Assembly: GCA_963760795.1 (NCBI GenBank)
Contig: CAVXEP010000012.1
Span: forward strand, 352,001 to 416,000
Source: an uncultured delta proteobacterium
GTDB lineage: Bacteria; Desulfobacterota; Binatia; UBA9968
DNA length: 64,000 nucleotides
Direction of reading: 5' to 3'
A program made the position numbers and the translations under genes. Within the stretch, counting starts at the first letter, position 1, and the number at the start of each line of letters is the position of its first letter. The notes under the pieces were generated by a model, which worked only from the letters and a program-made list of their open reading frames with translations, searched no databases and was not told the DNA's origin. Positions 18,239 through 41,463 of the stretch are shown piece by piece.

Positions 18239-19087
18239 TCAAGTCTGCTCTCGCTTCTCCCTCATGTGGGTCAAGCAACGAAGAAACAGATACACTTCGG
18301 TCGGGTTCTTGAGAAATCGAGCGGCTACGGTCTTTCGTGGCGTTTCCTCGACTAGAATAGCCATGCCTTTTTCCGCAATGGCTGCAAACGCCGCTTCATC
18401 GGTGCGGTCGTCACCAATATAGATCGGCAATGCGGTTGAAGCATAATGCGCGAGGATTTGCGTTATAGCATCTGCTTTCGTCATGCCTGTCGGTTTCGCT
18501 TCAATGACGTCTTTGCCGGCCAAAAGCTCTAGTTTGACGCCTTGCTGCTGATATTCATGGACCGCACGGACAAACTCCTGGCGCGCCGCCAATGCTGTGT
18601 CGCCGTCGGCCCGCCGGAAGTGCAGGGCCAGAGCAATGCCCTTGTCTTCCACGATGATTCCATCAGCGTCCGCCAGAGCCCGGCGCAACTCTTCGTGCAA
18701 GCAACGTAGTGTGTCGACAATCACCCGGTTCGGCCATGACCGATTGAACGTGCCGTCGGGCGCCGCCCACTCCAAGCCGTGGCATCCGACATAATAAATC
18801 TGCTCTAAACCGATGAGCCGCCTCAGCTTGTCAATGGGACGGCCACTGACGATTCCAACCGAGCATCCGGGCAAAGAATGAAAATCTTGCAGCCAACGTC
18901 TTCGCGGCTCGCTAAACAAGACATCGGCTGGAGTTGGCGCGATTTCGGCCAGGGTGCCGTCAAAGCCAAGAAACACAAATATTTCAGGCGCCTCGATAAC
19001 TATCTGCCAAAAATCTTGATCATGAAAGTTTAATCGTTGGGGAATCCCACCAGGTTGAAGCGATTGATTTATGCTATCGGTCGTCAT
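18239..19087 (-). CDS. otsB: Trehalose-6-phosphate phosphatase-like HAD protein (nucleophile Asp replaced by Gly)
   Basis: FLGFDGTLAEI, IVSGR, GCHGLE, VEDKG..ALHFR, GKDVIEAKP, YIGDDRTDEAAF. Confidence 0.85.
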   Translation of the reverse strand: MTTDSINQSLQPGGIPQRLNFHDQDFWQIVIEAPEIFVFLGFDGTLAEIAPTPADVLFSEPRRRWLQDFHSLPGCSVGIVSGRPIDKLRRLIGLEQIYYVGCHGLEWAAPDGTFNRSWPNRVIVDTLRCLHEELRRALADADGIIVEDKGIALALHFRRADGDTALAARQEFVRAVHEYQQQGVKLELLAGKDVIEAKPTGMTKADAITQILAHYASTALPIYIGDDRTDEAAFAAIAEKGMAILVEETPRKTVAARFLKNPTEVYLFLRCLTHMREKREQT

Positions 19088-19124
19088 GCAGATGCCCTCT
19101 CGACCGCTGATTTTGACCCCCCGT

Positions 19125-19330
19125 CTAGCGTCTGGGTCCCTGGGCCGTGATCACAAACCTGTCGCGGCGATTTTTTTGCCGGCAATCTTCGGACTGCGAT
19201 TGGCAGGCCGGAATCTCCTCGCCGTAGCTTATTGTGGCGATTCGATCCGCCGAAATACCGAGGCTCGTTAAATAGTCTTTGGCCGCTTGCGCTCGCTTGG
19301 CACCGAGAGCCAGAGTAAAGTATTGCCGTG
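19125..19330 (-). pseudogene. 3' fragment of a Pal-like peptidoglycan-associated lipoprotein
   Basis: Manual translation LALGAKRAQAAKDYLTSLGISADRIATISYGEEIPAC..DCRQKNRRDRFV*; the 5' half is absent. Confidence 0.75.
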
Positions 19331-19336
19331 ATGCAA

Positions 19337-19594
19337 TTAGAAAATGCCCTTCAATAAACCACCGACCGCGCGGAAGGGAAGGGATAGAACGTCGCCTACC
19401 ACATCAACCGTGCTGCTCAATGCGCCGCCAGATTCCCCCCGAGTTTCTGTAGTCGTCGTTTCGGTGCGGTTCTCTACGGCCGTTTCTGTAGGATACTGTC
19501 GAGTTTCGCTGGTAACCGTCCTGGTTTGAGTTGAACACCCAACGCCCAGAAACAGAACTAGAAGACTACTCACGAGCAAATTACTTTTTCGCAT
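19337..19594 (-). CDS. Small Thr-rich lipoprotein
   Basis: MRK start, lipobox GVGC, AGGAGG RBS. Confidence 0.75.
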   Translation of the reverse strand: MRKSNLLVSSLLVLFLGVGCSTQTRTVTSETRQYPTETAVENRTETTTTETRGESGGALSSTVDVVGDVLSLPFRAVGGLLKGIF

Positions 19595-19659
19595 GACAAC
19601 CTCCTGCCGGGAGCGAAATTTAAAACTCACAACGCGGCTCCCTGCCTACACTATGAATG

Positions 19660-19676
19660 AGCAAGGCCTGTACCAG
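19660..19676 (-). promoter_or_regulatory. Sigma-54 promoter CTGGTACAGGCCTTGCT
   Basis: GG-N10-GC, 66 bp upstream of the lipoprotein start; tandem motif at about 19746 and 19769. Confidence 0.7.
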
Positions 19677-19917
19677 ACCCAGAAAAAGTAATGCCTTTGA
19701 TCTTGCTGGACTTTATGACAAAATGTTAGTGGCAGGCGAGTCGGTGGAAGGATTTCCCCTGATTACCTGAAAGGGATTCCCCGACAAATAGTGAATCTAC
19801 TTTTCGAAATTCCCGCCCAGGCGATACTTTGCAGTGAAATTGACAAACGCCGATCGCGTCTGCTCACACTAAGATCGGCGATCAGGTATTCCGCGTCGAG
19901 CGAGAACCGGTCAGAAT

Positions 19918-21330
19918 CTAGTCCGCCTTTTTAAACGCTTGGAGATTGATGCCGTGTTTCTTCAGTAGGTCATAGAAATCCGCCCGGTATTTCCCGGCAA
20001 TCTCCGCGGCTTTTGCTGCACTGCCACTGCTGTGCTGGAGCAAGCGGACAAGGTATGCTTTTTCAAAGTCCGCCCGCGCTTCTTTGAGAGATTTGAGCGG
20101 GCCATCCACCGGTAGCAAGTCATATCGGAGAGCGGACTCCTGCGCTCCGATAGCCGTCTGGGCTCTGGTTTCGAATAAAAGCTCTTCGGTGACCACCTCC
20201 CCCTCGGCCATCGTGACGGCGTACTCCAACGTGTTTTCGAGCTCGCGAACATTGCCCGGCCAATCATGCAGCATCAGCTTCTTCATGGCTTGAGGTGTGA
20301 GACTTTTCACATCCTTTTTTGATTGCCGCGCGATTTTCTCCAGCAGATGGCTTACCAGGTGTGGGATATCTTCTTTCCGTTCCCGCAAAGGCGGGAGACG
20401 AACCGGAATAACATGAATCCGGTAGAACAGATCCTCGCGAAATAGCCCCTTTCGTACTTCTTCTTCAAGATCCTTCTTGGTGGCGACAATAACCCTGACA
20501 TCCACTTGAATCGGCTTTTCGCTGCCAATGGGATAAAATTGCCGCTCCTCCAACGCGCGCAGGAGTTTAGGTTGGATCGACATCGGCATATCGCCAATTT
20601 CATCTAATAAAATAGTGCCTTGATGAGCCTGCGCAAAATATCCCTTGGTGCTGCGCACCGCGCCGGTGAACGATCCCTTTTCGTGACCGAACAGCTCGCT
20701 CTCCAGCAATGCTTCAGGGACGGCGGCGCAATTGATCGCCACGAAGGGCTTATTTTTCCTCTCGCTGGCAAGATGAATAGCCTTGGCGATCACCTCCTTG
20801 CCTGTGCCACTTTCGCCTTGAATATGGACCGTAGATTCGGTCTGGGCGATTCGCGAAACCCCCGCCAGCACCTTCTGCATGACGTCGCTCTTGGCTACGA
20901 TATTGGTAAAATCGTATTTTTCCTTGAGCAGTTCCTTAAGCCGCACGTTCTCAGAGACAAGCCGGCGATTTTCCAGCGCTCGGCCGATCTGCAATTGCAG
21001 CTCCGTGGGATCGATGGGCTTGGTGAGATAGCCGTAGGCGCCTCTCTTGATGGCCTCTACGGCGCCTTCGATGCTTCCATAGCCAGTGAGAATAATCACC
21101 GGCAGGGCGGGATTGATCGCATGCAATTCCTCCATAATTGACATGCCGTCTTGGCCGGCAAGCTTCAAGTCAACAATGGAGAGATCAATGCTATCACCGT
21201 TGAGTGCTTCTTTGGCCTCCTCGCCTTTGACGGCCGTTACCACCTCGTATTTGGCTGCTTCGAGCCTGGTGCGAACTAATTCGAGGAGATTGCGGTCGTC
21301 GTCGACGACGAGAATCCTTCCGGTGGACAT
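19918..21330 (-). CDS. Sigma-54-dependent response regulator (NtrC/GlrR-like: REC-AAA+-HTH)
   Basis: [47 protein letters not shown]. Confidence 0.95.
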   Translation of the reverse strand: MSTGRILVVDDDRNLLELVRTRLEAAKYEVVTAVKGEEAKEALNGDSIDLSIVDLKLAGQDGMSIMEELHAINPALPVIILTGYGSIEGAVEAIKRGAYGYLTKPIDPTELQLQIGRALENRRLVSENVRLKELLKEKYDFTNIVAKSDVMQKVLAGVSRIAQTESTVHIQGESGTGKEVIAKAIHLASERKNKPFVAINCAAVPEALLESELFGHEKGSFTGAVRSTKGYFAQAHQGTILLDEIGDMPMSIQPKLLRALEERQFYPIGSEKPIQVDVRVIVATKKDLEEEVRKGLFREDLFYRIHVIPVRLPPLRERKEDIPHLVSHLLEKIARQSKKDVKSLTPQAMKKLMLHDWPGNVRELENTLEYAVTMAEGEVVTEELLFETRAQTAIGAQESALRYDLLPVDGPLKSLKEARADFEKAYLVRLLQHSSGSAAKAAEIAGKYRADFYDLLKKHGINLQAFKKAD

Positions 21331-21615: not shown

Positions 21616-21632
21616 GGCAAAGGGGATGCCAA
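21616..21632 (-). promoter_or_regulatory. Sigma-54 promoter TTGGCATCCCCTTTGCC
   Basis: Consensus -24/-12 upstream of the activator gene; tandem motif at 21705 and 21725. Confidence 0.72.
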
Positions 21633-21923
21633 CTCGGCAGAATGAATAACCACCCTTAATTTAAAGGAGTGCCGCTATGATTTACCATTCACCGAGTTTC
21701 GATATGAAGGGATTTTCCTCCATCGGAGGAATTTTACTGACAATCGATGCGGCGAAGATGCAAGCGGGGAAATCGCGAAGAGACGGCTCAAGCTGGATAC
21801 TTTCCCGCCTAGCGGCGCGTCCTCGTCCAATAGGGGACCGAAAAGAATGTTAACTTCGAGCACCGCGCAATGCGCCGCACCTAACGTTATTTGAATGAGT
21901 TTCACCAGCGGGAGGGTGTAAGA

Positions 21924-23489
21924 TTAAGACGGTTCTTGTTCAGTTGCTTTTTTTTCCGTGGACTGCTGATTCAACGGCAAATGAATGGTAAAGGTAGTGC
22001 CCTGTCCAGGCTGGCTTTCCACCTCAATCCGCCCGCCGTGAGATTTTACAATCCTCTCGCATATCGGCAGACCCAATCCCATGCCACGCCACTTCCTAGC
22101 GGTGAAAAAAGGCTGAAAGATCTTGGGCAGAGTGTCCGCGTCAATGCCAAACCCGGTATCCGCCACCGCGACGGTCATCTGACCGGACGAATTTTGCTTT
22201 GCTCTCAGGGTTAACTTCCCACCTGCTGGCATGGCATCCATCGCATTGAGCGACAAATTCACCAGCACCTGCTGCAACTGCTGCGGGTCGGCATAGATTC
22301 GCGGCAGTTCCGGCGCGATTTCCTGGACGGCTTGGACGTCTTGCTTGTACAGCCGGGTCGAGATCATTTCCAACGTTTTGCTAATCGTCTCTTGGACATC
22401 GATCAATATGAAATCCGTGCTTTTGGGCCGGCCGAATTCCAAAAGGTCCCGGACCATTTTTTCACAGCGCTTGGTCTCTTCAGAGATGATCTGTATGGGA
22501 CGATAGCTCGGATCGGCGGGGTCCATGTCGGCTAAAAGACCTTGAGCAAAACCAAGGATAATTCCCAGCGGGTTATTGAACTCATGGGCCATCGAAGCCG
22601 ATAGCTCGCCGACCGAGACAAGGCGGCCCGAGGCGATCAGTTGCTCCTCCAGTTCTTGGGCTTGTTTACGCAGCTTCTGCTCGCTTTCCCGCAGCGCTTC
22701 CTCCGTCCGTTTGCGATTCGTGATATCGATAATCGACACGAGGACGAAAGTTACGTCATTGATTTGGATTGGGTTAAGGCCGATCTCGACAGACACTTCT
22801 GATCCGTCCTTGCGCATGCCAAACAGATCACGGCCCGCTCCCATAGGGCGAGACTTCGGAGAGAGAAAAAACCCGGCCCGGAAGTCAGCGTGTTTGCCGC
22901 GAAAGCGCGCCGGCACGAGCGCGTCAATCGACTGCTGGAGCAACTCCTCTCGTGGGTACCCGAAAAGGCTCTCGGCGTGGGCATTGGTTAAGACGATTCG
23001 CCCATCCTTGCCGACCATAATCATCGCGTTTGGAGAAGCCTCAACCGCCAGGCGAAAGCGCGCCTCGCTTTGCTCTAGCGCTTGCTGCTTTATCCGCTCA
23101 TTCATGTGGAATAGGTCCACGAACGCAGCGACCTTGGCTTTCACCACTTCCGGAACCACCGGCTTGAAAAGGTAATCGACCGCCCCGCTGGCCGCCCCTC
23201 GATGCACATCTGAATCCAAGGTATCCACCGCGGAGAGAAAAATGATCGGCAGATGGCGCAATCGCTCGCGTTGTCGTATCAGCGCGGCGATCTCAAATCC
23301 GTCCATCTCCGGCATGCGCACGTCGAGCAGGATCACGGCGAATTCCCGCCGCATGAGTTCGCGCAGCGCGTCCGCGCCCGAGCGCGCCTTTACGACATTG
23401 CGCCCCGGCCCGGCGAGCAGGGCCTCCATGGCGAGCAGGCTCCTGTCGTCGTCGTCAACGACCAGAATGTTCGCCGTGGATTGAATCAT
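21924..23489 (-). CDS. Hybrid REC-PAS histidine kinase
   Basis: ILVVDDD..LLDVRMPEMDG, one PAS domain, AHEFNNPL, GMGLGL. Confidence 0.92.
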   Translation of the reverse strand: MIQSTANILVVDDDDRSLLAMEALLAGPGRNVVKARSGADALRELMRREFAVILLDVRMPEMDGFEIAALIRQRERLRHLPIIFLSAVDTLDSDVHRGAASGAVDYLFKPVVPEVVKAKVAAFVDLFHMNERIKQQALEQSEARFRLAVEASPNAMIMVGKDGRIVLTNAHAESLFGYPREELLQQSIDALVPARFRGKHADFRAGFFLSPKSRPMGAGRDLFGMRKDGSEVSVEIGLNPIQINDVTFVLVSIIDITNRKRTEEALRESEQKLRKQAQELEEQLIASGRLVSVGELSASMAHEFNNPLGIILGFAQGLLADMDPADPSYRPIQIISEETKRCEKMVRDLLEFGRPKSTDFILIDVQETISKTLEMISTRLYKQDVQAVQEIAPELPRIYADPQQLQQVLVNLSLNAMDAMPAGGKLTLRAKQNSSGQMTVAVADTGFGIDADTLPKIFQPFFTARKWRGMGLGLPICERIVKSHGGRIEVESQPGQGTTFTIHLPLNQQSTEKKATEQEPS

Positions 23490-26400
23490 AACGTCCTCCC
23501 CGTCGCGAGCTTTGCTTGCCAAATAACCAGATGCGCAGCAGTCCGATCAGCTCCTCGCCGTTAACCGGTTTGGCGATATAATCGGACGCACCGGCTTCCA
23601 GACACTTCTCTCGGTCGCCTTTCATCGCCTTTGCGGTAAGCGCGAGAATGGGCAGTAGCTTGTGTCTGGGGTTTTGCCGGATGCGGCGCGTGGTTTCGTA
23701 GCCGTCCATTTCCGGCATCATGATGTCCAACAGCACCGCGTCGATCTCCTCGTCTTCATCGAGTAGCGAAATCGCCTCACGACCGGTCTCGGAGTTTGCC
23801 ACCCGCAGCCCGTGCTGCTCGAGCAGACTGGTCAAAGCGAAGATGTTGCGCACGTCGTCGTCGACAACGAGTACCTTCCTGCCATTCAGCGCATCGTCGG
23901 TCCGGTGCAAGCGTTCGAGCATTTGCTGCTTGGCCGGCGGCAGTTCGGCGGCGACGGTGTGGAGGAAAAGCGTGGTCTCGTCGAGCAACCGCTCGGGAGA
24001 TTCGACGCCCTTGAGGACCACGCTCTCAGCCAACCGGATCAGCTTAAGCTCATCCGCCGCGCTCAGTTCCTTGCCGGTAAATACGACGATTGGGAGCTCG
24101 CGCAGCTCGGGCTTTTGCCGGATGCGTTCCAATAACTCGAAACCGGAGACATCCGGCAACCGAAGATCAAGGACAACGCAATCGAACTTCTGTGCGTCTA
24201 GGGCGGCCCACGTCTCGCCACCGCTTGCCGCCGCGACAATCTCAACACCGTTATGACTTAACAGCTCGATGATGCTCTTGCGTTCGATCTCATTGTCTTC
24301 GACTATTAATAATCTTCTCTGCCGCTCTTGTGCATAACGGATCACCCGCTCCAGAGCGTTTTTGAGCTCGTTCGAAGTCGCGGGCTTGATCAAATAAGAA
24401 AACGCACCACGTCCAAGCCCTTGGAGTCGTTCTTCTTCCACGCTGACGACTTGAACCGGTATATGACGAGTAGCGGGATCTTGCTTCAAGTGATTCAATA
24501 CCGTCCACCCCAGCATGTCAGGCAAAAAGATATCAAGCACGATCGCCTGGGGCTTGAACTCGTGGGTAAGGGAGCGGACGTGAGCGCCCCGGGCCGTCAC
24601 GACTCCTTTGAAGCCGCGATCGCGCACCAGCCCCAACAAAACGCCGGCGAAATGGGGGTCATCCTCGACGATTAGAACCACGGGATCGCCCGACTGCACG
24701 GAGTCTCGGTCGTCGGCGACCTCTTCCGCTTTGGTTGCTTGCTGGACGATCAGCGGCGCCGGACTGACCGCTGTGCGTCTCGCGTCGACTGTCGTAAGTC
24801 CGTAGCTTTGCGGTAAGTACAGCGTGAAGGTGCTGCCACGCCCGGGCGCGCTAATGAGGCGTATCTCTCCGCCGAGCAGCATCGCCAATTCGCGGCTGAT
24901 CGCAAGGCCGAGTCCGGTCCCACCGTAACGCCGGCTAGTGCTCGCATCAGCCTGGTGAAAAGCTTCGAAGATGATCTTCTGTTTGTCCTGCGCAATGCCG
25001 ATGCCGGTGTCTGTGACCTCAAAGGCGATCACCTTGTCAGCGTTTGCCAGCGGCTGATGATCGAGACTGAAGCCGCTGGCAGCGACTTTCATAGTAAACC
25101 TGACGCTCCCCTGGGAGGTGAACTTAAATGCGTTGGACAGTAAGTTCTTCAAAACCTGCTGCAAGCGCTTCAGATCCGTGGTTAGCGCGCGTGGCAGTTC
25201 GCCGTCCATATCTATATGAAACGCCAGGTGGCGTGCCTCGGCGACGTGGCGGAAGCTTCGTTCCACGGCTTCGCGCAGCTTGGCGAACGATACTTCTTCC
25301 GGCTCGACCGTGACCGTGCCCGATTCGATCTTGGAGAGATCGAGGATGTCAGTGATCAGGTTCAGAAGTTCGGTGCCGGCGTCGTGAATATTCTTGGAAA
25401 ACTCGACCTGCTTGGGATCCAGGTTGCGAGCGGGATTGTCGGCCAACTGCTGCGCCAGGATCAAGATACTGTTGAGCGGCGTGCGCAGCTCATGGGACAT
25501 ATTGGCGAGAAATTCAGATTTGTATTTGGATGTGAGCGCCAGCTCGGCGGCCTTTTCCTCCAGGGCGCCGCGCGCCTGTTCGATTTCTTGGTTTTTACGC
25601 TCAACCTCGGCGTTTTGCTCAGCCAGTTGTTTGGCCTTGTTGCCAAGTTCCTGATTGGTTTGCTGCAATTCTGTCTGTTGCGACTGTAACTCTCTGGCAA
25701 GTTCCTGCGACTGTTGGAGCAAACCTTCGGTGCGCATGGTCGCCTCGATGGTGTTGAGCACGATGCCGATGCTTTCAGTGAGTTGAGCGAGAAAGGCTTG
25801 GTGCGTCGAGGTAAACTCTTTGACCGAAGCCAGCTCGATAACGGCTTTGGTCTCGCCCTCAAAGAGCACCGGGAACACGATCAAGTTACGCGCCCAGGTG
25901 TCGCCCAGGGCTGAGCCGATCCGGATGTAATCTTCAGGCACATCGTCGAGCAGGATGCGCCGTTTTTCCAGCGCGCATTGGCCGACCAGACCAGCACCCA
26001 CAGCGAGACGGTCCGGCACACTCCGGCTACCAAGCCCGGCATAGCTTGAGAGAACGTGAAGGCAGGAGGCACCATCGTTGGTATTCATCTGATAGATGGC
26101 GCCGTACTGGGCATTCACCAGCGGCGCCATCTCCGAGAGCAGCATCTGTCCAACCGCGGTAAGATCGCGCTGGCCCTGGAGCATGCTAGTGAACCTGGCG
26201 AGGTTGGTCTTGAGCCAATCCTGCTCTCTATTCTCGTCCGTGGTGACACGCAGGTTTTGAATCATCGCATTAATGTTGTCTTTAAGCTCTGCTACCTCGC
26301 CACGCACGTCCACTTGAACCGCACGGGTGAGATCGCCCTTGGTGACCGCGGTGGCAACATCCGCGATGGCGCGCACCTGGGTGGTCAAGTTTGCCGCCAG

Positions 26401-28920
26401 CAGGTTGACGTTGTCGGTCAAATCTTTCCAGATGCCCGCCGCGCCCGGGACGTTGGCTTGCCCGCCCAGACGGCCCTCCACGCCAACTTCTCTGGCCACC
26501 GTGGTTACTTGCTCGGCGAAGATCGCCAGAGTGTTCGTCATGTTGTTGATGGTTTCCGCCAGTGCCGCGACCTCGCCCTTGGCCTCGACCGTGAGCTTTT
26601 CCCGCAGGCTGCCGTTGGCAACCGCGGTGACAACCTTGACGATGCCACGCACCTGCGCGGTTAGATTGGCCGCCATATCGTTGACGTTGTCCGTCAGATC
26701 CTTCCACGTGCCAGCGACGCCGGGGACCTGCGCCTGACCGCCGAGTTTTCCTTCGGTGCCAACCTCGCGCGCCACCCGGGTGACTTCCGCGGCGAAACTT
26801 CTCAGCTGGTCAACCATTGTATTGATGGCATCTTTGAGCTGGAGAATCTCGCCTTTGACGTCCACGGCGATCTTCTTCGATAAGTCGCCATTGGCCACCG
26901 CAATCGTCACCTCGGCGATATTACGCACCTGAGCGGTTAAATTACCCGCCATGAAATTCACGCTGTCGGTCAGATCCTTCCAAGTGCCGGCCACCCCCGG
27001 CACCACCGCTTGGCCGCCGAGCTTGCCATCGGTGCCGACCTCGCGCGCCACCCGAGTGACTTCTGCGGCGAAGCCGTTGAGCTGATCGACCATCGTGTTG
27101 ATGGCTTCCTTGAATTGTGAAATTTCACCGCGCACATCGACGGTGATCTTTTTCGAAAGATCGCCGTTGGCCACGGCGATGGTTACGTCGGCGATGTTTC
27201 TAACTTGCGCCGTTAAATTGCCGGCCATTAAGTTGACGTTGTCGGTCAAATCCTTCCATGTGCCGGCTACCCCCGGCACCACCGCTTGGCCACCGAGCTT
27301 GCCCTCAGTGCCAACCTCGCGCGCCACCCGCGTGACTTCCGCGGCGAAGCCGTTGAGCTGATCGACCATCGTGTTAATGGCTTCCTTGAGCTGGAGAATT
27401 TCGCCTTTGACATCGACGGTGATTTTCTTGGAAAGGTCGCCGTTGGCGACGGCGATCGTGACATCGGCGATGTTTCTCACCTGGCCGGTCAAATTGCCGG
27501 CCATCGCGTTGACGCTGTCGGTTAAATCCTTCCATGTGCCGGCAACGCCGGGGACTTGCGCTTGGCCGCCGAGCTTGCCATCAGTGCCAACCTCGCGCGC
27601 CACCCGGGTGACTTCTGCGGCGAAGCCGTTGAGCTGGTCGACCATCGTGTTGATGGCTTCCTTGAGGAGTAGTATTTCCCCACGCACGTCGACGGTAATC
27701 TTCTTTGATAAATCGCCGTTGGCGACAGCGATCGTGACATCAGCGATGTTTCTCACTTGGCCGGTCAAGTTACCGGCCATGATGTTGACGCTTTCCGTCA
27801 GATCCTTCCACACACCGCTGACATCGCGGACCTGCGCCTGACCGCCAAGCTTTCCTTCGGTACCAACCTCGCGCGCCACCCGGGTGACTTCCGCGGCGAA
27901 ACTTCTCAGCTGGTCAACCATTGTATTGATGGTATCTTTGAGCTGGAGAATCTCGCCTTTGACGTCCACGGCGATCTTCTTCGATAAGTCGCCATTGGCC
28001 ACCGCAATCGTCACCTCCGCGATATTACGCACCTGAGCGGTTAAATTACCCGCCATGAAATTCACGCTGTCGGTCAGATCCTTCCAAGTGCCGGCCACCC
28101 CAGGCACTACCGCTTGGCCGCCGAGCTTGCCGTCGGTCCCGACCTCGCGCGCCACCCGGGTGACTTCTGCGGCGAAACTTCTCAGCTGGTCAACCATTGT
28201 ATTGATGGTATCTTTGAGCTGGAGAATCTCGCCTTTGACGTCCACGGCGATCTTCTTCGATAAGTCGCCATTGGCCACCGCAATCGTCACCTCCGCGATA
28301 TTACGCACCTGAGCGGTTAAATTACCCGCCATGAAATTCACGCTGTCGGTCAGATCCTTCCAAGTGCCGGCCACCCCCGGCACCACCGCTTGGCCGCCGA
28401 GCTTGCCGTCGGTGCCGACCTCGCGCGCCACCCGGGTGACTTCTGCGGCGAAGTTGTCGAGCTGGTCGACCATGGCGTTGACCATCTTGGCGACGTGCAA
28501 AAACTCGCCGCGCAACGGTTGACCCTCGGCCTCCAGAGCCATGGTTTGGTTAAGATCGCCTTTGACCACCGAGCCGATGACGCGCGCCATCTCCGTGGTC
28601 GGTCGGACCAGACTATCGATTAGCTCGTTAATTGCATTGACCTGAATCTTCCACGCGCCTGCGGCCGCGGGAAGGGCCGCCCGTTGGGAAATCTTCCCCT
28701 CTTTGCCGACAACCCGGTTGACGCGCTCGAATTGCTTGGTGCTCTCGGCCATCATATCGATGATGTCATTGACGGTATCGGCGATCTTCCCGTCGATACC
28801 GGTCCACCCATAGGAGAGGCGAGTCGAGAAATCGCCTTTTTTGACCGACATAAGCACGCTGAGTAGCTGTTTGCTATCCAGCTTGTCACCATAGGCCGCA
28901 GGCGATTTCTTGGTTGGCAT
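23455..28920 (-). CDS. Poly-HAMP hybrid histidine kinase (HAMP array, GAF, HisKA, HATPase, three REC); OsaA/Nik1-like architecture
   Basis: Eight conserved 92-aa '[18 protein letters not shown]' repeats, [22 protein letters not shown], three receiver domains. Confidence 0.95.
26300..28500. repeat. Intragenic 276-bp tandem repeats encoding HAMP pairs
   Basis: Units starting near 26765, 27869 and 28145 are nearly identical at DNA level. Confidence 0.9.
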
Positions 28921-30901: not shown

Positions 30902-30918
30902 TTGGCATCTCGCTTGCT
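30902..30918 (+). promoter_or_regulatory. Sigma-54 promoter TTGGCATCTCGCTTGCT
   Basis: Consensus -24/-12, 64 bp upstream of the MlaC-like gene. Confidence 0.75.
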
Positions 30919-30981: not shown

Positions 30982-31596
30982 ATGAAGTCCTATTCCACGC
31001 ACAAACGCTGGCTGTTTTTAGTTGGAGTCATCTATCTGTTCATCGCTCTACCGCTAAGCGCCGGAGTGCCGAGCGATCAGACGCGGGCCACCATCGAAAA
31101 GGTTCTGTCGATTCTCAAAGACCCAGCCGCTAAATCAGAGCGACGCGAACGATTGCGACAAGTCATCTACCCAAGTTTCGACTTTGCCGAAATGGCCAAA
31201 CGTTCTCTCGGAACCCACTGGCAACGGCGCAACCCGGCTGAACAGCAGGAATTCGTCAAGCTCTTCACGGATCTTGTCGAATCATCCTATGTCGACGCGA
31301 TCGAGTCCTATAATGGTGAAAAAGTTGTGGTCTCAAATGAGAAGCAGGACAAAGAATTCGCGGAAGTAAATACCAAGATCGTGACAAAAAAAGGCGAAGA
31401 ATTTGCCATCGATTATAAACTTCACCAGATCAGCGGCAGCTGGAAAATTTACGACGCCGTGATTGAAAATGTCAGCCTGGTCAACAACTACCGTTCCCAA
31501 TTCAACCGCGTTATCGCTAAGTCTTCCTACGAAGATCTCTTGAGTAAAATGAAAGATAAGCAGTTCGAAACACCGGGGAAAAAGGTAAAAACATAA
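30982..31596 (+). CDS. MlaC/Ttg2D family phospholipid-binding periplasmic protein
   Basis: FDFAEMAKRSLG.HW, WKIYDAVIENVSLVNNYRSQF. Confidence 0.9.
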   Translation: MKSYSTHKRWLFLVGVIYLFIALPLSAGVPSDQTRATIEKVLSILKDPAAKSERRERLRQVIYPSFDFAEMAKRSLGTHWQRRNPAEQQEFVKLFTDLVESSYVDAIESYNGEKVVVSNEKQDKEFAEVNTKIVTKKGEEFAIDYKLHQISGSWKIYDAVIENVSLVNNYRSQFNRVIAKSSYEDLLSKMKDKQFETPGKKVKT

Positions 31597-31638: not shown

Positions 31639-32024
31639 ATAAAAAAGTTTGCACCCAAATACTTGGTTGTTGGATCAGTGATCGCTTCCTTGGCCGGATT
31701 AACCGTAAGGGTAACCGGCGCGCAGGAAAGACCGGCACTGCAACAACCCAGAGAGCAAACCGAAATCGGTGACAAAGAACTTAAAGCCTTTGCCAAGAGC
31801 TCCATAAGATTCGCGCTGAGTACGAACCGGCGCTAAACACGGCTCGCGATCCGCAAGAGCAGGGAAAGATCGAGCAGGATGCTCTAGAAAAGTTTGACAA
31901 GGCCGTGCAGAAACAGGGCCTCACGCTGGAAAGCTATTTCCGGATGTATCAAAGCGTCAACGCGAACGAACAGATTCGCGCGAAGGTCCTCAAGTTAATC
32001 GATGAAGAACGAAACAGAGCTTAA
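31639..32024 (+). pseudogene. DUF4168-like exported protein with ATA start and internal frameshift
   Basis: AAGGAGG followed by ATA-KKFAPK..IGDKELKAFAKS, then in another frame HKIRAEYE..AVQKQGLTLESY..KLIDEERNRA*. Confidence 0.65.
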
Positions 32025-33040: not shown

Positions 33041-33057
33041 CTGGCATGCCCTTTGCG
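33041..33057 (+). promoter_or_regulatory. Sigma-54 promoter CTGGCATGCCCTTTGCG
   Basis: Consensus -24/-12; IHF-like AATCAA just upstream. Confidence 0.72.
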
Positions 33058-33157: not shown

Positions 33158-33523
33158 ATGAAAGCGCTGAAAGTCTTACTCGTAGAAGATGACCAAAATT
33201 TATCCTTTATCCTAAAGGAAAGGCTCAAGTCCGAAGGATATGAAACCAGAATAGCCAAGGACGCGGCCGAAGGATATTCCATTTATCTGTGGTTCAGGCC
33301 AGACCTGGTGATTTCGGATATCCAGTTGCCGGGAGAAAACGGCGTGGAACTCCTGAGTCGAATAAGGAAAGTCAGTAATCCCAACATTAGAACGATCTAC
33401 ATGAGCGCGGATCTGGGTTGGTTGGAGGCGGAGATGAAACAGGAGAAGGGCAGACCGGAGGTACACGTGCTCGCGAAACCCTTTTCCACGGGCGAACTGA
33501 TGGAATTGGTTTCTGCGCATTAG
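33158..33523 (+). CDS. Single-domain response regulator
   Basis: VLLVEDD, PDLVISDIQLPG, KPF. Confidence 0.88.
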   Translation: MKALKVLLVEDDQNLSFILKERLKSEGYETRIAKDAAEGYSIYLWFRPDLVISDIQLPGENGVELLSRIRKVSNPNIRTIYMSADLGWLEAEMKQEKGRPEVHVLAKPFSTGELMELVSAH

Positions 33524-33582: not shown

Positions 33583-33939
33583 ATGAATCACAACAACACA
33601 GGTATCAAGAATATTGGATTGCTACTTATTGTCATGACTTTAATCGGCGCGGGCTGTGCAGGGGGATCGTTGACGACCAGAGAGAAAGGGGCAGGGATCG
33701 GCGCGGTCGGCGGCGCTGCGACAGGAGGTCTGATTGGCGCAGCCGTCGGCCACCCCGGTGCTGGTGCCGCCATTGGTGGTGCGCTCGGCCTCGGAGCCGG
33801 TGCGCTGGTCGGTGACCAGCTCCAAGGGCAGGAGAACCAAAACTACAGACAACAGGATCAGATCCAACGCAATCAGGACGAGATCGATCGGCAGCGTCGG
33901 GAGACCGAGCGCTTAAGACGCGAGCGCGGAGAGTATTGA
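33583..33939 (+). CDS. Glycine-zipper lipoprotein
   Basis: Lipobox GAGC; GAGIGAVGGAATGGLIG repeats. Confidence 0.85.
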   Translation: MNHNNTGIKNIGLLLIVMTLIGAGCAGGSLTTREKGAGIGAVGGAATGGLIGAAVGHPGAGAAIGGALGLGAGALVGDQLQGQENQNYRQQDQIQRNQDEIDRQRRETERLRRERGEY

Positions 33940-35117: not shown

Positions 35118-35741
35118 ATGAAAATGCTAATGATCGTACCAATGATTGCCGTGGCTTTGAGCACAGGTTTCATGGGCTGTGAGCCCAGAAACGATGATGC
35201 AAAGGTTGAGCCGAAAGCCGGGGACAGCAACTCGGATCTGGCGAAAAATATCAAGGTGATTCTTGACACTGACGATCAACTTCGTGCCGCCAATCTTAGC
35301 GTCAATGCCGATTCCAACAAAAAAGAAGCAACGCTGTCTGGAACGGTAGAGTCCGAAGCTTTGCGCAGTAGAGCCGTCGATCTCGCCAAGGGCGCGCAAC
35401 CGGACCTTAAGGTGAACGACATGATCGAGGTAAAATCGCGTGAGGCGACGCGCGAGGATTTTACCGGAGGTATAGCCCGACAGGAGCCGGACAAAGCAAA
35501 GCAAGTAGTCGAGAACGTCGGCAGGACGATTGAGGACACCTGGCTGCAGGGGAAGATCCTAACCAAGTTGGTTGGCAACGCAAAAACGCCAGCGCGTAAC
35601 ATCGGCGTAGAGGTCGTTGAGGGGGTCGTTACATTGCGAGGTACTGTCGAATCATCTGACGTAAAGGCCGAGGCGCAGCGACTGGCACAGGCAACTGAGG
35701 GAGTTAAGCGAGTGGATAACCGCCTGGAGGTAAACACGTAA
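35118..35741 (+). CDS. Dual BON-domain lipoprotein (OsmY-like)
   Basis: Lipobox FMGC; ATLSGTV; GVVTLRGTV..A..TEGVKRVDNRLEV. Confidence 0.88.
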   Translation: MKMLMIVPMIAVALSTGFMGCEPRNDDAKVEPKAGDSNSDLAKNIKVILDTDDQLRAANLSVNADSNKKEATLSGTVESEALRSRAVDLAKGAQPDLKVNDMIEVKSREATREDFTGGIARQEPDKAKQVVENVGRTIEDTWLQGKILTKLVGNAKTPARNIGVEVVEGVVTLRGTVESSDVKAEAQRLAQATEGVKRVDNRLEVNT

Positions 35742-37274: not shown

Positions 37275-37514
37275 TTATATATGCTGTCCAAAGTCCGCCG
37301 TTCTGCTGGACTTGATCGCGTTCTTCTCGCACCATTCCTCTGTCCAACGCTGCACTTCGTCTTTTTGGTCACCGTAGCGCTTTTGAGCTACGCCGAGGAA
37401 CTTGTCGTAATCACCCTCGGCTTCCAGAAGATCGTTGTCAGTAAAGTGTCCCCACTTCTTCTTCACAGCTCCCTTGAATTGGCGCCAGCTCCCTTTGAAT
37501 TGATCTTTATTCAT
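37275..37514 (-). CDS. CsbD family general stress protein
   Basis: MNKDQFKGSWRQFKGAVKKKWGHFTDNDL..EG..DKFLG..QKRYG. Confidence 0.92.
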   Translation of the reverse strand: MNKDQFKGSWRQFKGAVKKKWGHFTDNDLLEAEGDYDKFLGVAQKRYGDQKDEVQRWTEEWCEKNAIKSSRTADFGQHI

Positions 37515-37672: not shown

Positions 37673-37689
37673 TGCATATGCGATGCCAA
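37673..37689 (-). promoter_or_regulatory. Sigma-54 promoter TTGGCATCGCATATGCA
   Basis: GG-N10-GC upstream of the csbD-like gene. Confidence 0.68.
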
Positions 37690-38017
37690 TCCCGAGCTCA
37701 CGAGAACAAGCGCGACAATTCAACTACTTAATGATTAACGCGAATAGGGCAGATGTTGCATTGGTAAGACATTCGCCTGCAAATGAAGATTTATAGCTAG
37801 CGAATATCGGACAGCGGCGGCAAACAGGAATATTGTTTATTGAAACCATGAATAGGATTGCGATTGGGCAAATTAAACCACTACCCCGGTCTAACTTCAG
37901 AAGAGATTTTTGAGTGAATGTGGGACCCCTACGAGGGCGGATATTTCGCCAGACGCAATGGATGCATCATGAGGCGCTCGGAGAACATAATTTCCCCGAG
38001 TATTGTTTGTCAGCAAC

Positions 38018-38211
38018 CTACACAGGCGGCCGTCGTCCCATGACCATGCCGACAAGGAACAAAACCATAAAGACTACGAACAAGATCCATGCAATCTGCG
38101 TTGCCGCGCCAGCGAGATGGCGACGATATAGTTCAATAGCCGCGGAATCTTCAGGATCAATATTCCCGCGATGAGCGCCACCAAAGGCTGTAGTGCGATG
38201 TGCATTTGCAT
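38018..38211 (-). pseudogene. Deletion chimera of a 5' DUF3096 gene and a 3' DUF1328 gene
   Basis: MQMHIALQPLVALIAGILILKIPRLLNYIVAI joined out of frame to LAGAATQIAWILFVVFMVLFLVGMVMGRRPPV*. Confidence 0.7.
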
Positions 38212-38266: not shown

Positions 38267-38767
38267 CTACATGTTCGGCACCGGTGTCTCATCCAACAAT
38301 TCAACTTGAACTTTGGCAACTCCGTTGTTTATCAGTCCAATGGCTTCGGCCGCCGCCTGCGATAAGTCGATCAACCGTCCTGCGACATAGGGACCGCGGT
38401 CATTAATCAGAACCTCTATCGATTTCCCATTAGCCAAATGAGTAACTCTCGCCCTGCGCCCTAAAGGTATTGTCTTATGCGCCGCGGTGAACTTCGTTTG
38501 ATCGAAAACCTCGCCGCTGGCGGTTTTTTTTCCGTGGAACCCCGGTCCGTACCATGACGCCGATCCGGTATAAACAGATGCCGGCGCTTCGGAGCTCGGT
38601 GTTCTGCGACTATCTGACTTCATAGGATTAGGTTGGCTTACTAAACTTGAATTGGAAATCTCTGAACCTGAAATTGAGCAACCTTGGGTCATCGACAGAG
38701 CCAACAACACCGTGACAATTCCAAGCAATCCGCCACAACTCGGTATCTGTGGTCTAGTCATTAACAT
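38267..38767 (-). CDS. RlpA-family (DPBB) lytic transglycosylase lipoprotein
   Basis: GSASWYGPGFHGKKTASGE, TAAHKTIPLG, INDRGPY..GRLIDLS. Confidence 0.9.
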   Translation of the reverse strand: MLMTRPQIPSCGGLLGIVTVLLALSMTQGCSISGSEISNSSLVSQPNPMKSDSRRTPSSEAPASVYTGSASWYGPGFHGKKTASGEVFDQTKFTAAHKTIPLGRRARVTHLANGKSIEVLINDRGPYVAGRLIDLSQAAAEAIGLINNGVAKVQVELLDETPVPNM

Positions 38768-39042: not shown

Positions 39043-39059
39043 AGCAACAGGGGTGCCAA
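39043..39059 (-). promoter_or_regulatory. Sigma-54 promoter TTGGCACCCCTGTTGCT
   Basis: Near-perfect TGGCAC-N5-TTGCT. Confidence 0.75.
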
Positions 39060-39451
39060 CGCATCGTAAAATGCACATTGTCCTTTGATAACCGGGTTTT
39101 CGCTTGTTTATATCGACACGGAAATCTCCGCGATCACATAGAGCTTTTCCTGCAATTTGCCGGCAAATTGTCCGAGTTACTCATACCAAACTTTTGTCGG
39201 TGTAACTGTTCAAGAGTTTCTGCGCCGGAAGCGCAAAAACCATTGCCCGGCGAAAAACGTGAGTGACAGTCACTATCGCAAGGAAATCTCGGTTCTCGGT
39301 TATAACCAAAGTCACAACCAAGAGAGGGGTATCGGTCGATGTCAGTGGTTTTCCTTCAGCGGTTAGCAAAAAACTCTGACAAACCAGCTCATCTAAGAAT
39401 GTCGTGGCCGCTAAGTCACCTAAAGAATAGCGATATTGGACACGAAGATAT

Positions 39452-39468
39452 CTGGCATATCTTTTGTA
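39452..39468 (+). promoter_or_regulatory. Sigma-54-like promoter CTGGCATATCTTTTGTA
   Basis: -24 is perfect, -12 has GT for GC; motif copies at 39341 and 39362. Confidence 0.55.
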
Positions 39469-39534: not shown

Positions 39535-39885
39535 ATGAAACATGTATTTTGGCTGACACCAATCGTATTGACTTCGGCATTGGTTTTACCGGCCTGCGAC
39601 AAGGGACAAAATGATCGCGCACCAACTTCGGAAAGCACTCCCGGTGTTGCAGCTACGAAACCGTCCGATGCCGACTTAGAAAAGGCAGTTCGGGCGAAGT
39701 TGGAAAGCGATGACGCAATCAAACAGGCAAATTTGTCGGTGAGCGCCGATGTCGGAGCTAATAAGGCCACCCTCTCAGGAATGGTAGTCTCTCAGGATCT
39801 CAGGACCAAGGCGATCACTCTCGCCCAAAGCGCCCAACCCGGTTTGACCATCGAAGACAAGATCGATGTTAAGCCGGCCGGATAA
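39535..39885 (+). CDS. Single BON-domain lipoprotein
   Basis: Lipobox LPAC; similar to the first BON of 35118..35741; GAGGAG RBS. Confidence 0.85.
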   Translation: MKHVFWLTPIVLTSALVLPACDKGQNDRAPTSESTPGVAATKPSDADLEKAVRAKLESDDAIKQANLSVSADVGANKATLSGMVVSQDLRTKAITLAQSAQPGLTIEDKIDVKPAG

Positions 39886-40090
39886 ACTTTTCAGCGCACC
39901 GCGCTTTAGATACTGGCCGTCGCCGCGAACGAAAAGAGCAACGGGAATGCGCTAATGCCGTTGAGCCTGTCCATGAAATATCCTCTGCCGCAACGCAGGC
40001 GGCGCCACTTAGTGGACCGGCTATTCATCTTGCTCTGACGCCGGAACAAAACGGCAGGACGAAAGGAATTGAAGAGGAGATCGCCAGACA

Positions 40091-40338
40091 TGAGCAACGC
40101 AAGAACATGGTTTCCCATACTTGATCATCGGGGCTACACTGGGCGCCCCATGCGGGGAAAGAGACGCGCGCCGAACTTCGCCGCGGCGCGGATGAGGGGT
40201 TGAATATTTTAACCAAAGAAGCAGAGAAAGTCCGCGCCGGCGCCGGCCGTTGGTTCGCCAGAGTAGAAGAACATTTTGGCGGAGATAAAACGCGACGCGG
40301 TGGTGGCCTTCACGAACCGGAAGGTCGACAAGAATGAA
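40091..40338 (+). pseudogene. YtxH-like gene remnant
   Basis: GAGGAG-ATG, then a frameshift into IGLHWAPHAGKETRAELRRGADEG. Confidence 0.5.
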
Positions 40339-40406
40339 CCACGAATCAGCCGCGGCGCAATGCCACGCGGGAATCCGGCTTTCAAGCGTGCGTTTGGACG
40401 GTACCC

Positions 40407-40556
40407 ATGTTACAGGCGATCAACTTTCTTATCTTGATAATTTGGTTTGCAGGCTCCGTTACCGGAAACACAATCGGAGGATTGCTTCACCTACTCCTAC
40501 TGCTGGCGTTGATCGTTCTATACATCCAGTATCTCGAAAAACATAAATCGTCATGA
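40407..40556 (+). CDS. lmo0937/DUF5670-like 49-aa membrane protein
   Basis: MLQAINFLILIIWFAGSVTGNTIGGLLHLLLLLALIVLYIQ; below the ORF-track cutoff. Confidence 0.7.
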   Translation: MLQAINFLILIIWFAGSVTGNTIGGLLHLLLLLALIVLYIQYLEKHKSS

Positions 40557-40569
40557 AATGTGGCAGGGG

Positions 40570-40794
40570 ATGAAAATGAAACCAATTATGCTCGCCGGTA
40601 TCGGCTTGATTCTACTTGGCATTGTCGGTCTTTCCTATAATCAAATCACCTATACCAGCAAAGAAAAGATCCTCGATATCGGTCCGATCCAAGCTACCGC
40701 CGAAAAGGAAAAATCGATTCCACTGCCGCCTTTGTTAGGTGGACTGGTTTTAGTCTTCGGCATCGGCCTAGTCGCGGTGGGTTACAAGAAATAG
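40570..40794 (+). CDS. DUF3185-like small membrane protein
   Basis: GLILLGIVGLSY..KEKILDIGPIQAT..K.IPLPPLLGG. Confidence 0.8.
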   Translation: MKMKPIMLAGIGLILLGIVGLSYNQITYTSKEKILDIGPIQATAEKEKSIPLPPLLGGLVLVFGIGLVAVGYKK

Positions 40795-40842
40795 GCAGGA
40801 CAGGGCCAATCCAAAATCCCATTAAGGTTAAAGGATCAGGTT

Positions 40843-41463
40843 ATGTACAAAGCCAAACAATTCAATCTAAGCGGCTTGAAAGGAATATCCGATCAGACAC
40901 TGGAGATGCATTTCAAGCTTTACGAAGGTTACGTCAAAGAGACCAACCGCCTTCAAGAAAAGATCTCCCAAATCCTCAAGGATGGCAATGTCGATCAAGA
41001 GGAAATGCCCGCCTATTCGGAACTCAAACGGCGCCTGGGTTTTGAATACAACGGTATGGTGCTGCACGAGTACTATTTCGGTAATTTGAAGAAAGGCGGC
41101 TCCGGAGAAGCGGAATCACAATCTTCGTTTGTCAAAGCCGCGACTATCAGTTTCGGTAGCCGTGACATTTGGCAAGCGGACTTTACCAGCATCGGCAAGA
41201 TGCGCGGCGTCGGATGGGCGATTTGTTATCAAGATCCGACCACGGGTGAGTTGTCGAATCATTGGATCTCACTGCACGAGATTGGCAACGTCGCCGGCTA
41301 CAATCCCGTGCTCGTGATGGATGTTTGGGAACACGCTTTTCTTCTCGATTATAAACCAATCGACCGGGCGAAATATATCGAAGCGTTTTTCGAAAATATC
41401 GATTGGACTGCAGTTGGCCAACGACTGCTAAGACCGGCTATTCGAAAATCTCGCGCAGCCTAA
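40843..41463 (+). CDS. Fe/Mn superoxide dismutase family protein
   Basis: Ligands MHF, LHEYYF, DVWEHAF are present. Confidence 0.9.
   Translation: MYKAKQFNLSGLKGISDQTLEMHFKLYEGYVKETNRLQEKISQILKDGNVDQEEMPAYSELKRRLGFEYNGMVLHEYYFGNLKKGGSGEAESQSSFVKAATISFGSRDIWQADFTSIGKMRGVGWAICYQDPTTGELSNHWISLHEIGNVAGYNPVLVMDVWEHAFLLDYKPIDRAKYIEAFFENIDWTAVGQRLLRPAIRKSRAA

Follow-up and report, generated by a model that had tools for sequence, protein, structure and literature searches.

How does a soil bacterium turn on its survival genes if it seems to lack the known stress sigma factors? The established general stress regulons of bacteria are those of RpoS, SigB, and EcfG-NepR-PhyR. The question is raised by a 64,000-nucleotide stretch of DNA (the window; positions 352001 to 416000 of contig C12) from the genome of an uncultured bacterium (G000), and it bears on the way such genes are activated in abundant, uncultured bacteria of soil that have no RpoS, SigB, or EcfG. 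Within the window, a block at 18239-41463 (the island) contains relatives of known stress genes, two cytoplasmic kinases, and a sigma-54 activator. A reading of the sequence alone had proposed that the island is a general stress regulon, wired to sigma-54 promoters through a signaling cascade of its own. We consider it reasonably probable (about 60%) that the island's nine sigma-54 promoters, eight of which have a shared upstream box, form one regulon under the island's activator, which would act once phosphorylated, probably by a REC-PAS kinase that would itself be under a poly-HAMP kinase.

The genome comprises 6.58 Mb in 35 contigs (88.9% complete, 6.2% contamination). It likely belongs to the Binatia: the nearest named homolog of the island activator is from a Candidatus Binatia genome (69% identity) and is nested inside a clade of the family's own copies. 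Genes were called with a simple codon model (6298 genes), which missed some small open reading frames (ORFs) and so slightly affects what counts as intergenic; they were labeled by Pfam and NCBIfam family cutoffs. For promoter scoring, we used a matrix of 17 columns that was based on the textbook consensus and drawn up once the sites were known, with a cutoff of at least 13 unless another value is given. Coordinates without a contig name are those of the window.

Sigma-54 promoters and a shared upstream box

The sequence-only reading listed eight GG-N10-GC promoters and one with a weaker -12 element, each intergenic and pointing at a gene. We found all nine -24/-12 sites, with the expected spacing and strands; the one at 39452 has GT at -12 (Table 1). 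These are the only matches in the block, where 0.9 to 1.1 would be expected (Poisson p = 5e-7 against the genome's intergenic rate), and all of them are intergenic and correctly oriented. Shuffling the block in two-base pieces 200 times gave a mean of 0.88 matches and a maximum of 4. When the spacer was shifted by -2, -1, +1, or +2, the block had 0, 0, 2, or 1 matches, and shifts by one or two bases reduced the intergenic matches across the genome from 155 to 56-66. A literal pattern, used without the matrix, matched 5 times in the block (0.58 expected), and the matrix recovers the expected sigma-54 site before a P-II gene. Thus, coordinates, matrix, and spacer control bear out the nine promoters, and their density is well above background. 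A loose pattern matched 22 times over the entire window, where 19.8 matches would be expected, so the promoter signal is local. Sigma-70-like sites are not in excess (7 versus 10.8 expected), nor are terminators, and no Rfam family was found in 14000-46000. For otsB, no promoter of its own had been proposed and we found none; it lies 589 bp behind the 19660 promoter. Four promoters have signaling genes as their direct targets: 21616 (the activator), 29138 (the poly-HAMP kinase), and 30421 and 33041 (single receivers).

A de novo motif search in the nine upstream regions identified a 19-bp palindrome, similar to TGTAGG-N7-CCTACA (UAS-2 in Table 1), with a log-likelihood of 46.7, whereas three shuffled sets reached 28-29. 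Eight of the nine promoters carry this box. In a leave-one-out test, which used distinct sites because two divergent promoter pairs have common upstream DNA, eight promoters exceeded 96.8% of 2056 control upstream regions, and five of the nine exceeded 99.9%; the exception was 33041. The best boxes lie 91, 91, 90, 91, 93, 70, 73, and 109 bp upstream, and second boxes lie at 70-71 bp. Five of the best boxes fall at 90-93 bp, even though position was not part of the motif model. There are thus two fixed spacings, about 71 and 91 bp, with centers near -108 and -128 and two helical turns between them.

The rest of the genome has few copies of the box (28 sites of at least 8 bits at 209 other promoters). 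It is also present 85-92 bp before three promoters on contig C29, one of which leads to another paralog of the activator. Applied to the 29 best loci of other genomes, the matrix trained on the window marked a box at 24 of the 36 sigma-54 sites that lie within 1.5 kb of an activator homolog, whereas 50 shuffles gave a mean of 3.4 and a maximum of 7. The bands defined from the window (66-74 or 86-94 bp) cover 7.8% of positions but contain 21 of the 35 boxes in relatives; the binomial value of 4e-15 overstates the case, as the kin are not independent. An in-band box is present at 17 of the 29 activator loci, and the consensus in relatives resembles tGtagG-aaatt-CctaCa.

Conservation of the csbD promoter extends further than that of the box. 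Across the class, csbD has a sigma-54 site (score of at least 10, within 300 bp upstream) in 20 of 30 loci from 8 families, one of these loci being from G000 itself; the opposite strand and the downstream side, as controls, gave 6 and 1 of 30, respectively, and 19 of the 20 sites lie 31-94 bp upstream. In the class-wide sample, none of the 23 sigma-54 sites near csbD had the box. The activator's subfamily is present in 73 of 90 genomes of the family (E ≤ 1e-150) and in none of 75 genomes from the class's other families (E ≤ 1e-130); class-wide, it was found in 6 of 81 genomes, all from its own family. Sigma-54 control of csbD therefore looks class-wide, whereas the 19-bp enhancer and its putative activator look specific to the family.

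RNA contigs assembled from soil metatranscriptomes offer a weak hint about transcription starts. Sixteen runs from ten studies cover part of 29000-38000, with small shares in runs X7-X16, and we compared seven of them. The contigs come from related strains (mostly 90-99% alike), and neither their depth nor the gaps in their cover can serve to rank genes or to call one silent. Contigs from five studies cover island units. Those of the csbD unit, from four studies, end at 37660, 37630, 37624, and 37617; a contig of the 39043 unit reaches 39005; those of the BON unit begin at 39499 and 39507; and one contig spans 40024-41243. Four runs have no cover at the promoter zones 37636-37887 and 39064-39483. 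Although this is not start-site mapping, the contig ends are compatible with three of the predicted starts (37662, 39032, and 39479).

The candidate activator and candidate kinases

The activator retains the receiver aspartate, Walker A and B motifs, arginine finger, and helix-turn-helix. Its best NCBIfam match is GlrR, at 445.8, which is below the equivalog cutoff of 763, and it is 45% identical to GlrR-type proteins of Proteus. In a FastTree phylogeny of 55 aligned, partly truncated sequences, rooted arbitrarily on a paralog, it joins GlrR from Proteus and Xenorhabdus (support 0.999), and the island copies are nested among copies that adjoin GlrK. Duplication likely proceeded from the GlrK-adjacent copies to the island copies. 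We found no close solved structure; the best matches in PDB are generic NtrC-family proteins. Contig C35 (90068-94945) encodes a GlrK-like membrane kinase, a GlrR-like activator, and an OmpA-like lipoprotein; the kinase and activator are probably the ancestral pair and are kept in most of the family.

What would this activator bind? In E. coli, GlrR (also known as QseF) is described as binding TGTC-N10-GACA upstream of a sigma-54 promoter (PMC3045617, PMC6075780). The recognition helix of the island activator, GKYRADFYDLL, is found in 24 of 29 relatives and differs from that of GlrR (GRNRTEFYKLL). The simplest pairing would be that a GlrR relative with a changed helix reads the TGT-N13-ACA box, and the likely reader is the local activator or one of three paralogs with the same helix. 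In three loci of genus g53 (L184-L186), the activator homologs have the helix GKCRTDFYELL, and two of these loci show no 19-bp box, so that nature here provides a test of how helix and box are paired.

The comparison with QseE/QseF (GlrK/GlrR) is close in some respects: the activators are of the same clade and have the same REC-AAA+-HTH architecture, the output is related to the envelope, palindromic TGT...ACA sites lie about 100 bp or more before sigma-54 promoters, and a GlrK-like partner exists on C35 (for E. coli, see PMC3045617 and PMC6075780). In contrast, the island box has 19 bp rather than 18, one base longer than TGTC-N10-GACA; the activator scores below the GlrR cutoff and has been duplicated into stress islands; it would control many protein targets instead of glmY and rpoE; there is no glmY-qseE-qseG-qseF gene order; and the window activator adjoins cytoplasmic hybrid kinases instead of a membrane kinase. 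The island protein is a member of the GlrR/QseF clade from outside the Enterobacteria; its recognition helix is altered, and its likely site is longer by one base.

Neither kinase has a membrane helix, and the histidine and receiver aspartate residues are intact in both. The poly-HAMP kinase has 8-9 HAMP matches followed by GAF, HisKA, HATPase, and three REC domains (hydropathy maximum 1.54). Its core is present in 37 of 90 family genomes, and the REC-PAS kinase is present in 12 of 90; 11 relatives have the latter, and in 8 of them it is directly preceded by the poly-HAMP gene, the exceptions among the ten loci examined being G125 and G130. A kinase with the same H-box is directly upstream of the activator in G130, G152, G094, G119, G122, and G125, which represent three genera, with varying sensor domains. 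The sequence-only reading had suggested looking for the same synteny in relatives. Genome G129 is collinear with 21705-41462, apart from insertions, with seven of the nine promoters at equivalent places, six of them boxed; its activator sits after the superoxide dismutase (SOD) gene, where the window holds an activator fragment. Among the loci examined, the full triad is adjacent only in this window and in G094, from another genus, with a boxed promoter. Judged by these gene orders, the relay is two conserved pairwise links within a shuffling island. As for the proposed cascade, its genes, catalytic residues, and conserved pairs hold up, but it is less certain that the activator is the island's own, as four paralogs share the recognition helix, which leaves the reader of the box and its kinase ambiguous.

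Two related arrangements were seen elsewhere in the genome. On contig C29 (296685-304185), a second poly-HAMP kinase (2109 aa) is followed by a REC-HWE kinase. HWE is the kinase type of the alphaproteobacterial stress response, and this genome seems to lack NepR and PhyR. Contig C22 (55519-59178), just downstream of rpoD, carries a near-identical otsB, the 19660 promoter, and the REC-PAS kinase minus its first 93 residues; this copy has an inserted OmpA-domain gene and no activator.

From the promoters, box, spacings, motifs, clade, and gene pairs, we infer the following mechanism. Envelope, osmotic, or stationary-phase stress would act on the cytoplasmic poly-HAMP kinase, which would control the REC-PAS kinase; this in turn would phosphorylate the adjacent activator. 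Once phosphorylated, the GlrR-clade activator would bind the 19-bp box, and sigma-54 holoenzyme would start transcription at the nine sites. Positive feedback would arise from the boxes that precede the activator gene, the operon of the kinases, and a receiver gene; in particular, the two boxes before 21616 predict autoregulation of the activator gene. The three-step order is read from gene adjacency, and the weakest step is the osmotic trigger, which is borrowed from the fungal group III kinases. The island would then be a GlrR-derived, envelope-leaning branch (MlaC, LapA, RlpA, BON and glycine-zipper lipoproteins, OtsB, SOD, and CsbD) of a larger sigma-54 stress program, whose core enzymes would be encoded elsewhere and controlled through a second enhancer, probably by a different activator.

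Two known systems resemble the proposed relay. In Myxococcus xanthus, another soil bacterium, NmpU-NmpS-NmpR also runs from a kinase through a hybrid REC-kinase to an NtrC-like activator with a multi-operon sigma-54 regulon (PMC11841059); NmpU, however, is described there as a heme oxygen sensor with an oxygen-use regulon, whereas the island has a poly-HAMP-GAF kinase with three receivers and a GlrR-like activator. M. xanthus AskA/AskB and the fungal group III kinases are likewise membrane-less, with poly-HAMP, GAF, kinase, and multiple receiver domains (PMC7643160, PMC13446029). Osmosensing is shown for the fungal proteins, but the bacterial ones were called poorly characterized in 2026 (PMC13446029), and in these two sources we found none of them linked to a sigma-54 activator. 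The locus offers a transcriptional readout for such kinases and a complete parts list for testing: a promoter, a 19-bp enhancer at fixed spacing, a candidate activator, and two candidate kinases, each of which could be expressed in E. coli.

Sigma factors, the wider program, and alternative explanations

The genome encodes one RpoN (491 aa, above the TIGR02395 cutoff). Twelve proteins match sigma-70 region 2: RpoD, an RpoH-like protein, a 509-aa RpoD paralog, and about nine of the extracytoplasmic function (ECF) type, three of them classified. The RpoD paralog is below the cutoffs for RpoD, RpoS, and SigB (RpoS score 263 versus 378.7). None of 56 family genomes has a protein above the RpoS cutoff (TIGR02394), for which E. 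coli was the positive control. In this genome, which is 89% complete, the three long sigma-70 proteins score 87-132 on the model for SigB/F/G (TIGR02980; cutoff 234), NepR has no match, and the sigma domain of PhyR matches only below its cutoff, on an ECF. Two genes with SpoIIE domains are present. These searches for rpoS, sigB, and ecfG leave a second RpoD-like sigma factor as the remaining possible stress sigma; 54 of the 56 family genomes have two or more RpoD-like matches.

Across the family, copy numbers of RpoD paralogs with 500-550 aa range from one to five; in G109, G111, and G113, a GlrR-like activator is found about 6 kb away from one of them. The gene for the 509-aa paralog of G000 (C22:178650-180269, L003) has a sigma-54-like site 73 bp upstream. 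We considered and rejected a family-wide cascade from RpoN to an alternative sigma factor: a same-strand site 70-90 bp upstream is present at 3 of 20 paralog loci (scores 13.3, 13.3, and 10.7), and two of these three loci are 91-93% identical to G000.

The genome has 155 intergenic sigma-54 matches, about 95 of which are in excess and look true, and 26 activator-like loci. Four of 267 tiles of 23.2 kb have seven or more matches: besides the block, there are two stretches on C29 with 9 each and one on C3 with 7. The island is one of at least three of its kind. Among 87 proteins scanned from the C29 stretches are CsbD, ferritin-like, BON, catalase, Ku/LigD, glycogen and trehalose enzymes, CBS, PRC, DUF1328, and DUF3096. 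A motif search on 44 island promoters identified a 16-bp palindrome (similar to GTCnCA-N4-TGnGAC; UAS-1), which on other contigs precedes genes for ferritin, Ku/LigD, and a treZ-like glucanase as well as further csbD copies. Its spacer has 10 bases, as in the GlrR site. As the window's own enhancer it was rejected: with a matrix trained on 12 non-window sites, 1 of 10 window-side promoters (csbD) reaches 8 bits, and the background rate is 8%. Spaced-dyad counting and a motif search over all 155 intergenic sites yielded AT-rich signals only, and a search over the 119 promoters without the 16-bp box gave no clear motif. With at least two enhancers in this genome-wide set, the island is a branch of it rather than a self-contained regulon.

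The larger sigma-54 stress clusters (C29:165000-216000, 249000-263000, and 305000-331000; L118-L125) have the 16-bp enhancer and include topoisomerase IB. An activator at C29:170081 is split by a frameshift and has a perfect 16-bp box upstream of its own promoter. A further cluster (C3:11000-51000, C14:9022, and C30:40680) has Usp, DoxX, and receiver genes, mostly without either enhancer, and may be a third, hypoxia-like branch.

Several observations weigh against a single regulon with a local activator. There is no box at promoter 33041, and the csbD promoter weakly matches both types of box; 12 of the 29 activator loci in relatives lack an in-band box. IHF consensus sites are near just two of the nine promoters. 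The activator has the loop GSFTGA in place of GAFTGA, as do 7 of 29 relatives and one homolog from Nitrospirae. Four paralogs in G000 have the same recognition helix and a near-identical receiver helix 1, and one of them adjoins the membrane GlrK-like kinase. The loci of the closest activators (G125 and G130; 88-89% identity) lack a poly-HAMP gene; in G129, both kinases are present with no activator behind them, and the equivalent of promoter 21616 has no box. In RNA run X6, cover extends to intergenic DNA, both at 30439-30692 and upstream of 30902. The -24/-12 matrix was drawn up after the sites had been seen, and the relatives are not independent. Finally, the assembly is 89% complete with 6% contamination, and island modules recur on C22, C29, and C30 as 95-99.75% copies (otsB, the activator, part of the REC-PAS kinase, and the gene at 36134). 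These copies may reflect recent duplication or strain mixture, which look alike here, yet G125 and G089 also carry two equal-scoring copies of the activator.

The shared helix and receiver and the missing poly-HAMP genes are what could be expected if the promoters and box were read mainly by the ancestral GlrK-GlrR pair on C35, or by other paralogs, in response to an envelope signal, with the island kinases feeding the single receivers and being mere targets or neighbors of the regulon. In relatives, GlrK-adjacent copies are followed by boxed promoters that drive the same receiver, glycine-zipper, MlaC, and OmpA genes, and E. coli QseEF is reported to control envelope regulators (PMC6075780). 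But this does not account well for the single kinase subfamily directly upstream of island-type activators in six relatives from three genera, nor for the boxes before the island activator itself in many relatives, and we regard it as unlikely, if by no means negligible. We give less weight to another explanation, that sigma-54 is this lineage's default for accessory, secreted, and small-protein genes, while the RpoD-like sigma factor is the true stationary-phase regulator and the island answers one narrow signal. The excess sites and the many activator-like loci fit this, as do targets such as P-II, glutaminase, Usp, and PaaA-like proteins, the RpoD paralog and its prevalence in the family, and the decay of several island stress genes to pseudogenes. 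Yet a site (score of at least 12, within 300 bp) is found at only 2.8% of the 6298 called genes, and these include csbD, ferritin-like, Ku, treZ-like, DUF3309, CBS, and SOD genes; the csbD promoter is conserved across the class; and the RpoD paralog itself has an upstream sigma-54-like site in G000 and two close relatives. On balance this is improbable. A further explanation, in which the matches arose by chance or are vestigial and the island is decaying and possibly misassembled, is largely refuted: pseudogenes, deletions, near-identical modules on other contigs, and 6% contamination would suit it, but the site statistics, the spacer control, the collinearity and promoter conservation with G129 over about 20 kb, and the RNA cover in soil metatranscriptomes do not.

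Does the single regulon of nine promoters that we prefer amount to a general stress response? The conserved sigma-54-type promoters, the presence of rpoN, the apparent lack of RpoS, SigB, and NepR, and the shared box agree with that part of the sequence-only reading, but the local targets are as much envelope and signaling genes as general stress genes. Sigma-54 has been framed as a controller of the cell exterior (PMC3162934), and E. coli yjbJ, osmY, ytjA, and otsB are reported to be stress-induced (PMC5105897). The island overlaps the RpoS, SigB, and EcfG regulons in CsbD/YjbJ, OsmY-like BON proteins, OtsB, DUF1328/YtjA, small membrane proteins, and SOD; unlike theirs, its promoters are of the -24/-12 type with enhancers, and at least two enhancer classes split the gene set. 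In Borrelia, the Rrp2-RpoN-RpoS cascade reportedly places sigma-54 above a stress and adaptation program by acting through rpoS, whereas in the island the target genes themselves carry -24/-12 promoters. We tentatively raise a broader idea, which we think is more doubtful than the regulon itself: the Binatia may have a fourth kind of bacterial general stress response, with no dedicated stress sigma factor, in which sigma-54 works with at least two activators, one of them a GlrR duplicate that once served envelope control and is now linked to a cytoplasmic poly-HAMP osmosensor via a two-kinase relay with positive feedback. If true, a bacterial kinase of the group III-like type would for the first time have a transcriptional output assigned to it.

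The class of mechanism, a two-component activator with sigma-54, is textbook; the wiring, site, and lineage were not found in the literature we searched, which covered few subscription journals and no supplements. Within that scope, we found no publication on RpoN control of CsbD-, OsmY-, or trehalose-type genes or on stress sigma factors of the Binatia. A 2025 cross-phylum survey of sigma-54 is silent in its main text on CsbD, OsmY, trehalose, general stress, and "Binat-"; likewise, neither sigma nor RpoN is mentioned in the paper on the Binatota genomes.

Genes and remnants of the island

Most of the gene labels in the sequence-only reading were supported by Pfam: otsB, csbD, the two BON proteins, Fe/Mn SOD, the glycine-zipper lipoprotein, both kinases, and the activator. 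The lmo0937 label is supported by DUF5670 and is below the NCBIfam cutoff, and DUF3185 was not confirmed by Pfam. DUF1328, DUF3096, and YtxH, which had been listed among the island genes, are broken remnants (Table 1). At the junction of DUF3096 and DUF1328, RNA contigs of related strains diverge at 38115.

Table 1. Predicted sites, genes, and remnants in and beside the island, in order of position in the window
Feature	Positions	Strand	Remarks
otsB, trehalose-6-phosphate phosphatase	18239..19087	-	PF02358; TIGR00685 above cutoff; 99.75% copy on C22
Small lipoprotein-like ORF	19337..19594	-	First behind promoter 19660; no family match; 62-64% homologs behind sigma-54 sites in three relatives
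Sigma-54 promoter	19660..19676	-	Score 16.1; predicted start near 19649
UAS-2 box	19768..19786		91 bp upstream of 19660; leave-one-out 15.7
REC-AAA+-HTH sigma-54 activator, GlrR/QseF clade	19918..21330	-	Asp54, Walker A/B, GSFTGA loop, arginine finger
Sigma-54 promoter of activator gene	21616..21632	-	Score 15.4
Two abutting UAS-2 boxes	21704..21742		71 and 91 bp upstream of 21616; leave-one-out 10.6
Cytoplasmic REC-PAS-HisKA-HATPase hybrid kinase	21924..23489	-	Pfam; Asp56, His302
Cytoplasmic poly-HAMP-GAF-HisKA-HATPase-3xREC kinase	23455..28920	-	Group III/AskA-like architecture; overlaps REC-PAS kinase gene
Sigma-54 promoter of kinase operon	29138..29154	-	Score 13.3; counterparts in G129, G130, G125
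Two UAS-2 boxes	29225..29263		70 and 90 bp upstream of 29138; leave-one-out 18.2
LapA-domain membrane protein	29505..29855	-	PF06305
Single receiver-domain protein	29955..30347	-	Pfam
Sigma-54 promoter, before single receiver gene	30421..30437	-	Score 14.1
UAS-2 box	30529..30547		91 bp upstream of 30421; leave-one-out 15.2
UAS-2 box	30813..30831		70 bp upstream of 30902; leave-one-out 15.7
Sigma-54 promoter, before mlaC	30902..30918	+	Score 15.9
mlaC paralog, periplasmic phospholipid shuttle	30982..31596	+	PF05494
Broken DUF4168 gene	31663..32024	+	Sequence comparison
Sigma-54 promoter, before single receiver gene	33041..33057	+	Score 17.2; no convincing UAS-2, no G129 counterpart
Single receiver-domain protein	33158..33523	+	Pfam; in relatives, homologs come after GlrK-GlrR pairs
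Glycine-zipper lipoprotein	33583..33939	+	PF13488
Two-BON (OsmY-like) lipoprotein	35118..35741	+	Pfam; no sigma-54 site within 300 bp
csbD	37275..37514	-	PF05532
Sigma-54 promoter of csbD unit	37673..37689	-	Score 15.6; predicted start near 37662
Overlapping weak UAS-1 and UAS-2 matches before the csbD promoter	37753..37781		UAS-1 8.6 at 63 bp; UAS-2 9.6 at 73 bp
Fused remnants: DUF3096 5' half (38110-38211) and DUF1328 3' half (38018-38113)	38018..38211	-	Joined by deletion
rlpA-like lytic transglycosylase lipoprotein	38267..38764	-	Pfam, NCBIfam
Sigma-54 promoter	39043..39059	-	Score 15.9; predicted start near 39032; small first gene lost by deletion, rlpA next
UAS-2 box	39169..39187		109 bp upstream of 39043; leave-one-out 11.1
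UAS-2 box	39340..39358		93 bp upstream of 39452; leave-one-out 15.6
Sigma-54 promoter, GT at -12	39452..39468	+	Score 14.1; predicted start near 39479
Single-BON lipoprotein	39535..39885	+	Pfam
Frameshifted YtxH-like remnant	40089..40337	+	16 bits versus cutoff of 37.5
lmo0937/DUF5670 small membrane protein	40407..40556	+	27.1 versus NCBIfam cutoff of 30; passes Pfam DUF5670
Small two-helix membrane protein	40558..40794	+	DUF3185 label, no Pfam confirmation
Fe/Mn superoxide dismutase family protein	40843..41463	+	Pfam; last gene of probable 39452 unit
Fragment of second GlrR-like activator gene	42086..42184	-	Right of island; intact at same place in G129

The SOD-family protein (40843-41463) is divergent and far below the NCBIfam cutoffs for SOD; a paralog on C29 (56%) has its own sigma-54-like site. 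The protein at 36134-36751 (-; 205 aa) has a weak match to the SLOG family, and its 95% copy on C30 lies within another small cluster of stress genes. Three more genes (32112-32612 (+), 33969-34382 (+), and 36888-37247 (-)) have no confident family and are conserved in the same island in G129, G125, or G126. Left of the island, at 15091-17921, are a receiver-domain gene and an adenylation-carrier gene similar to nonribosomal peptide synthetases (NRPS-like); a -24/-12 match inside the receiver ORF, at 15142, which scores 13.0, is probably due to chance.

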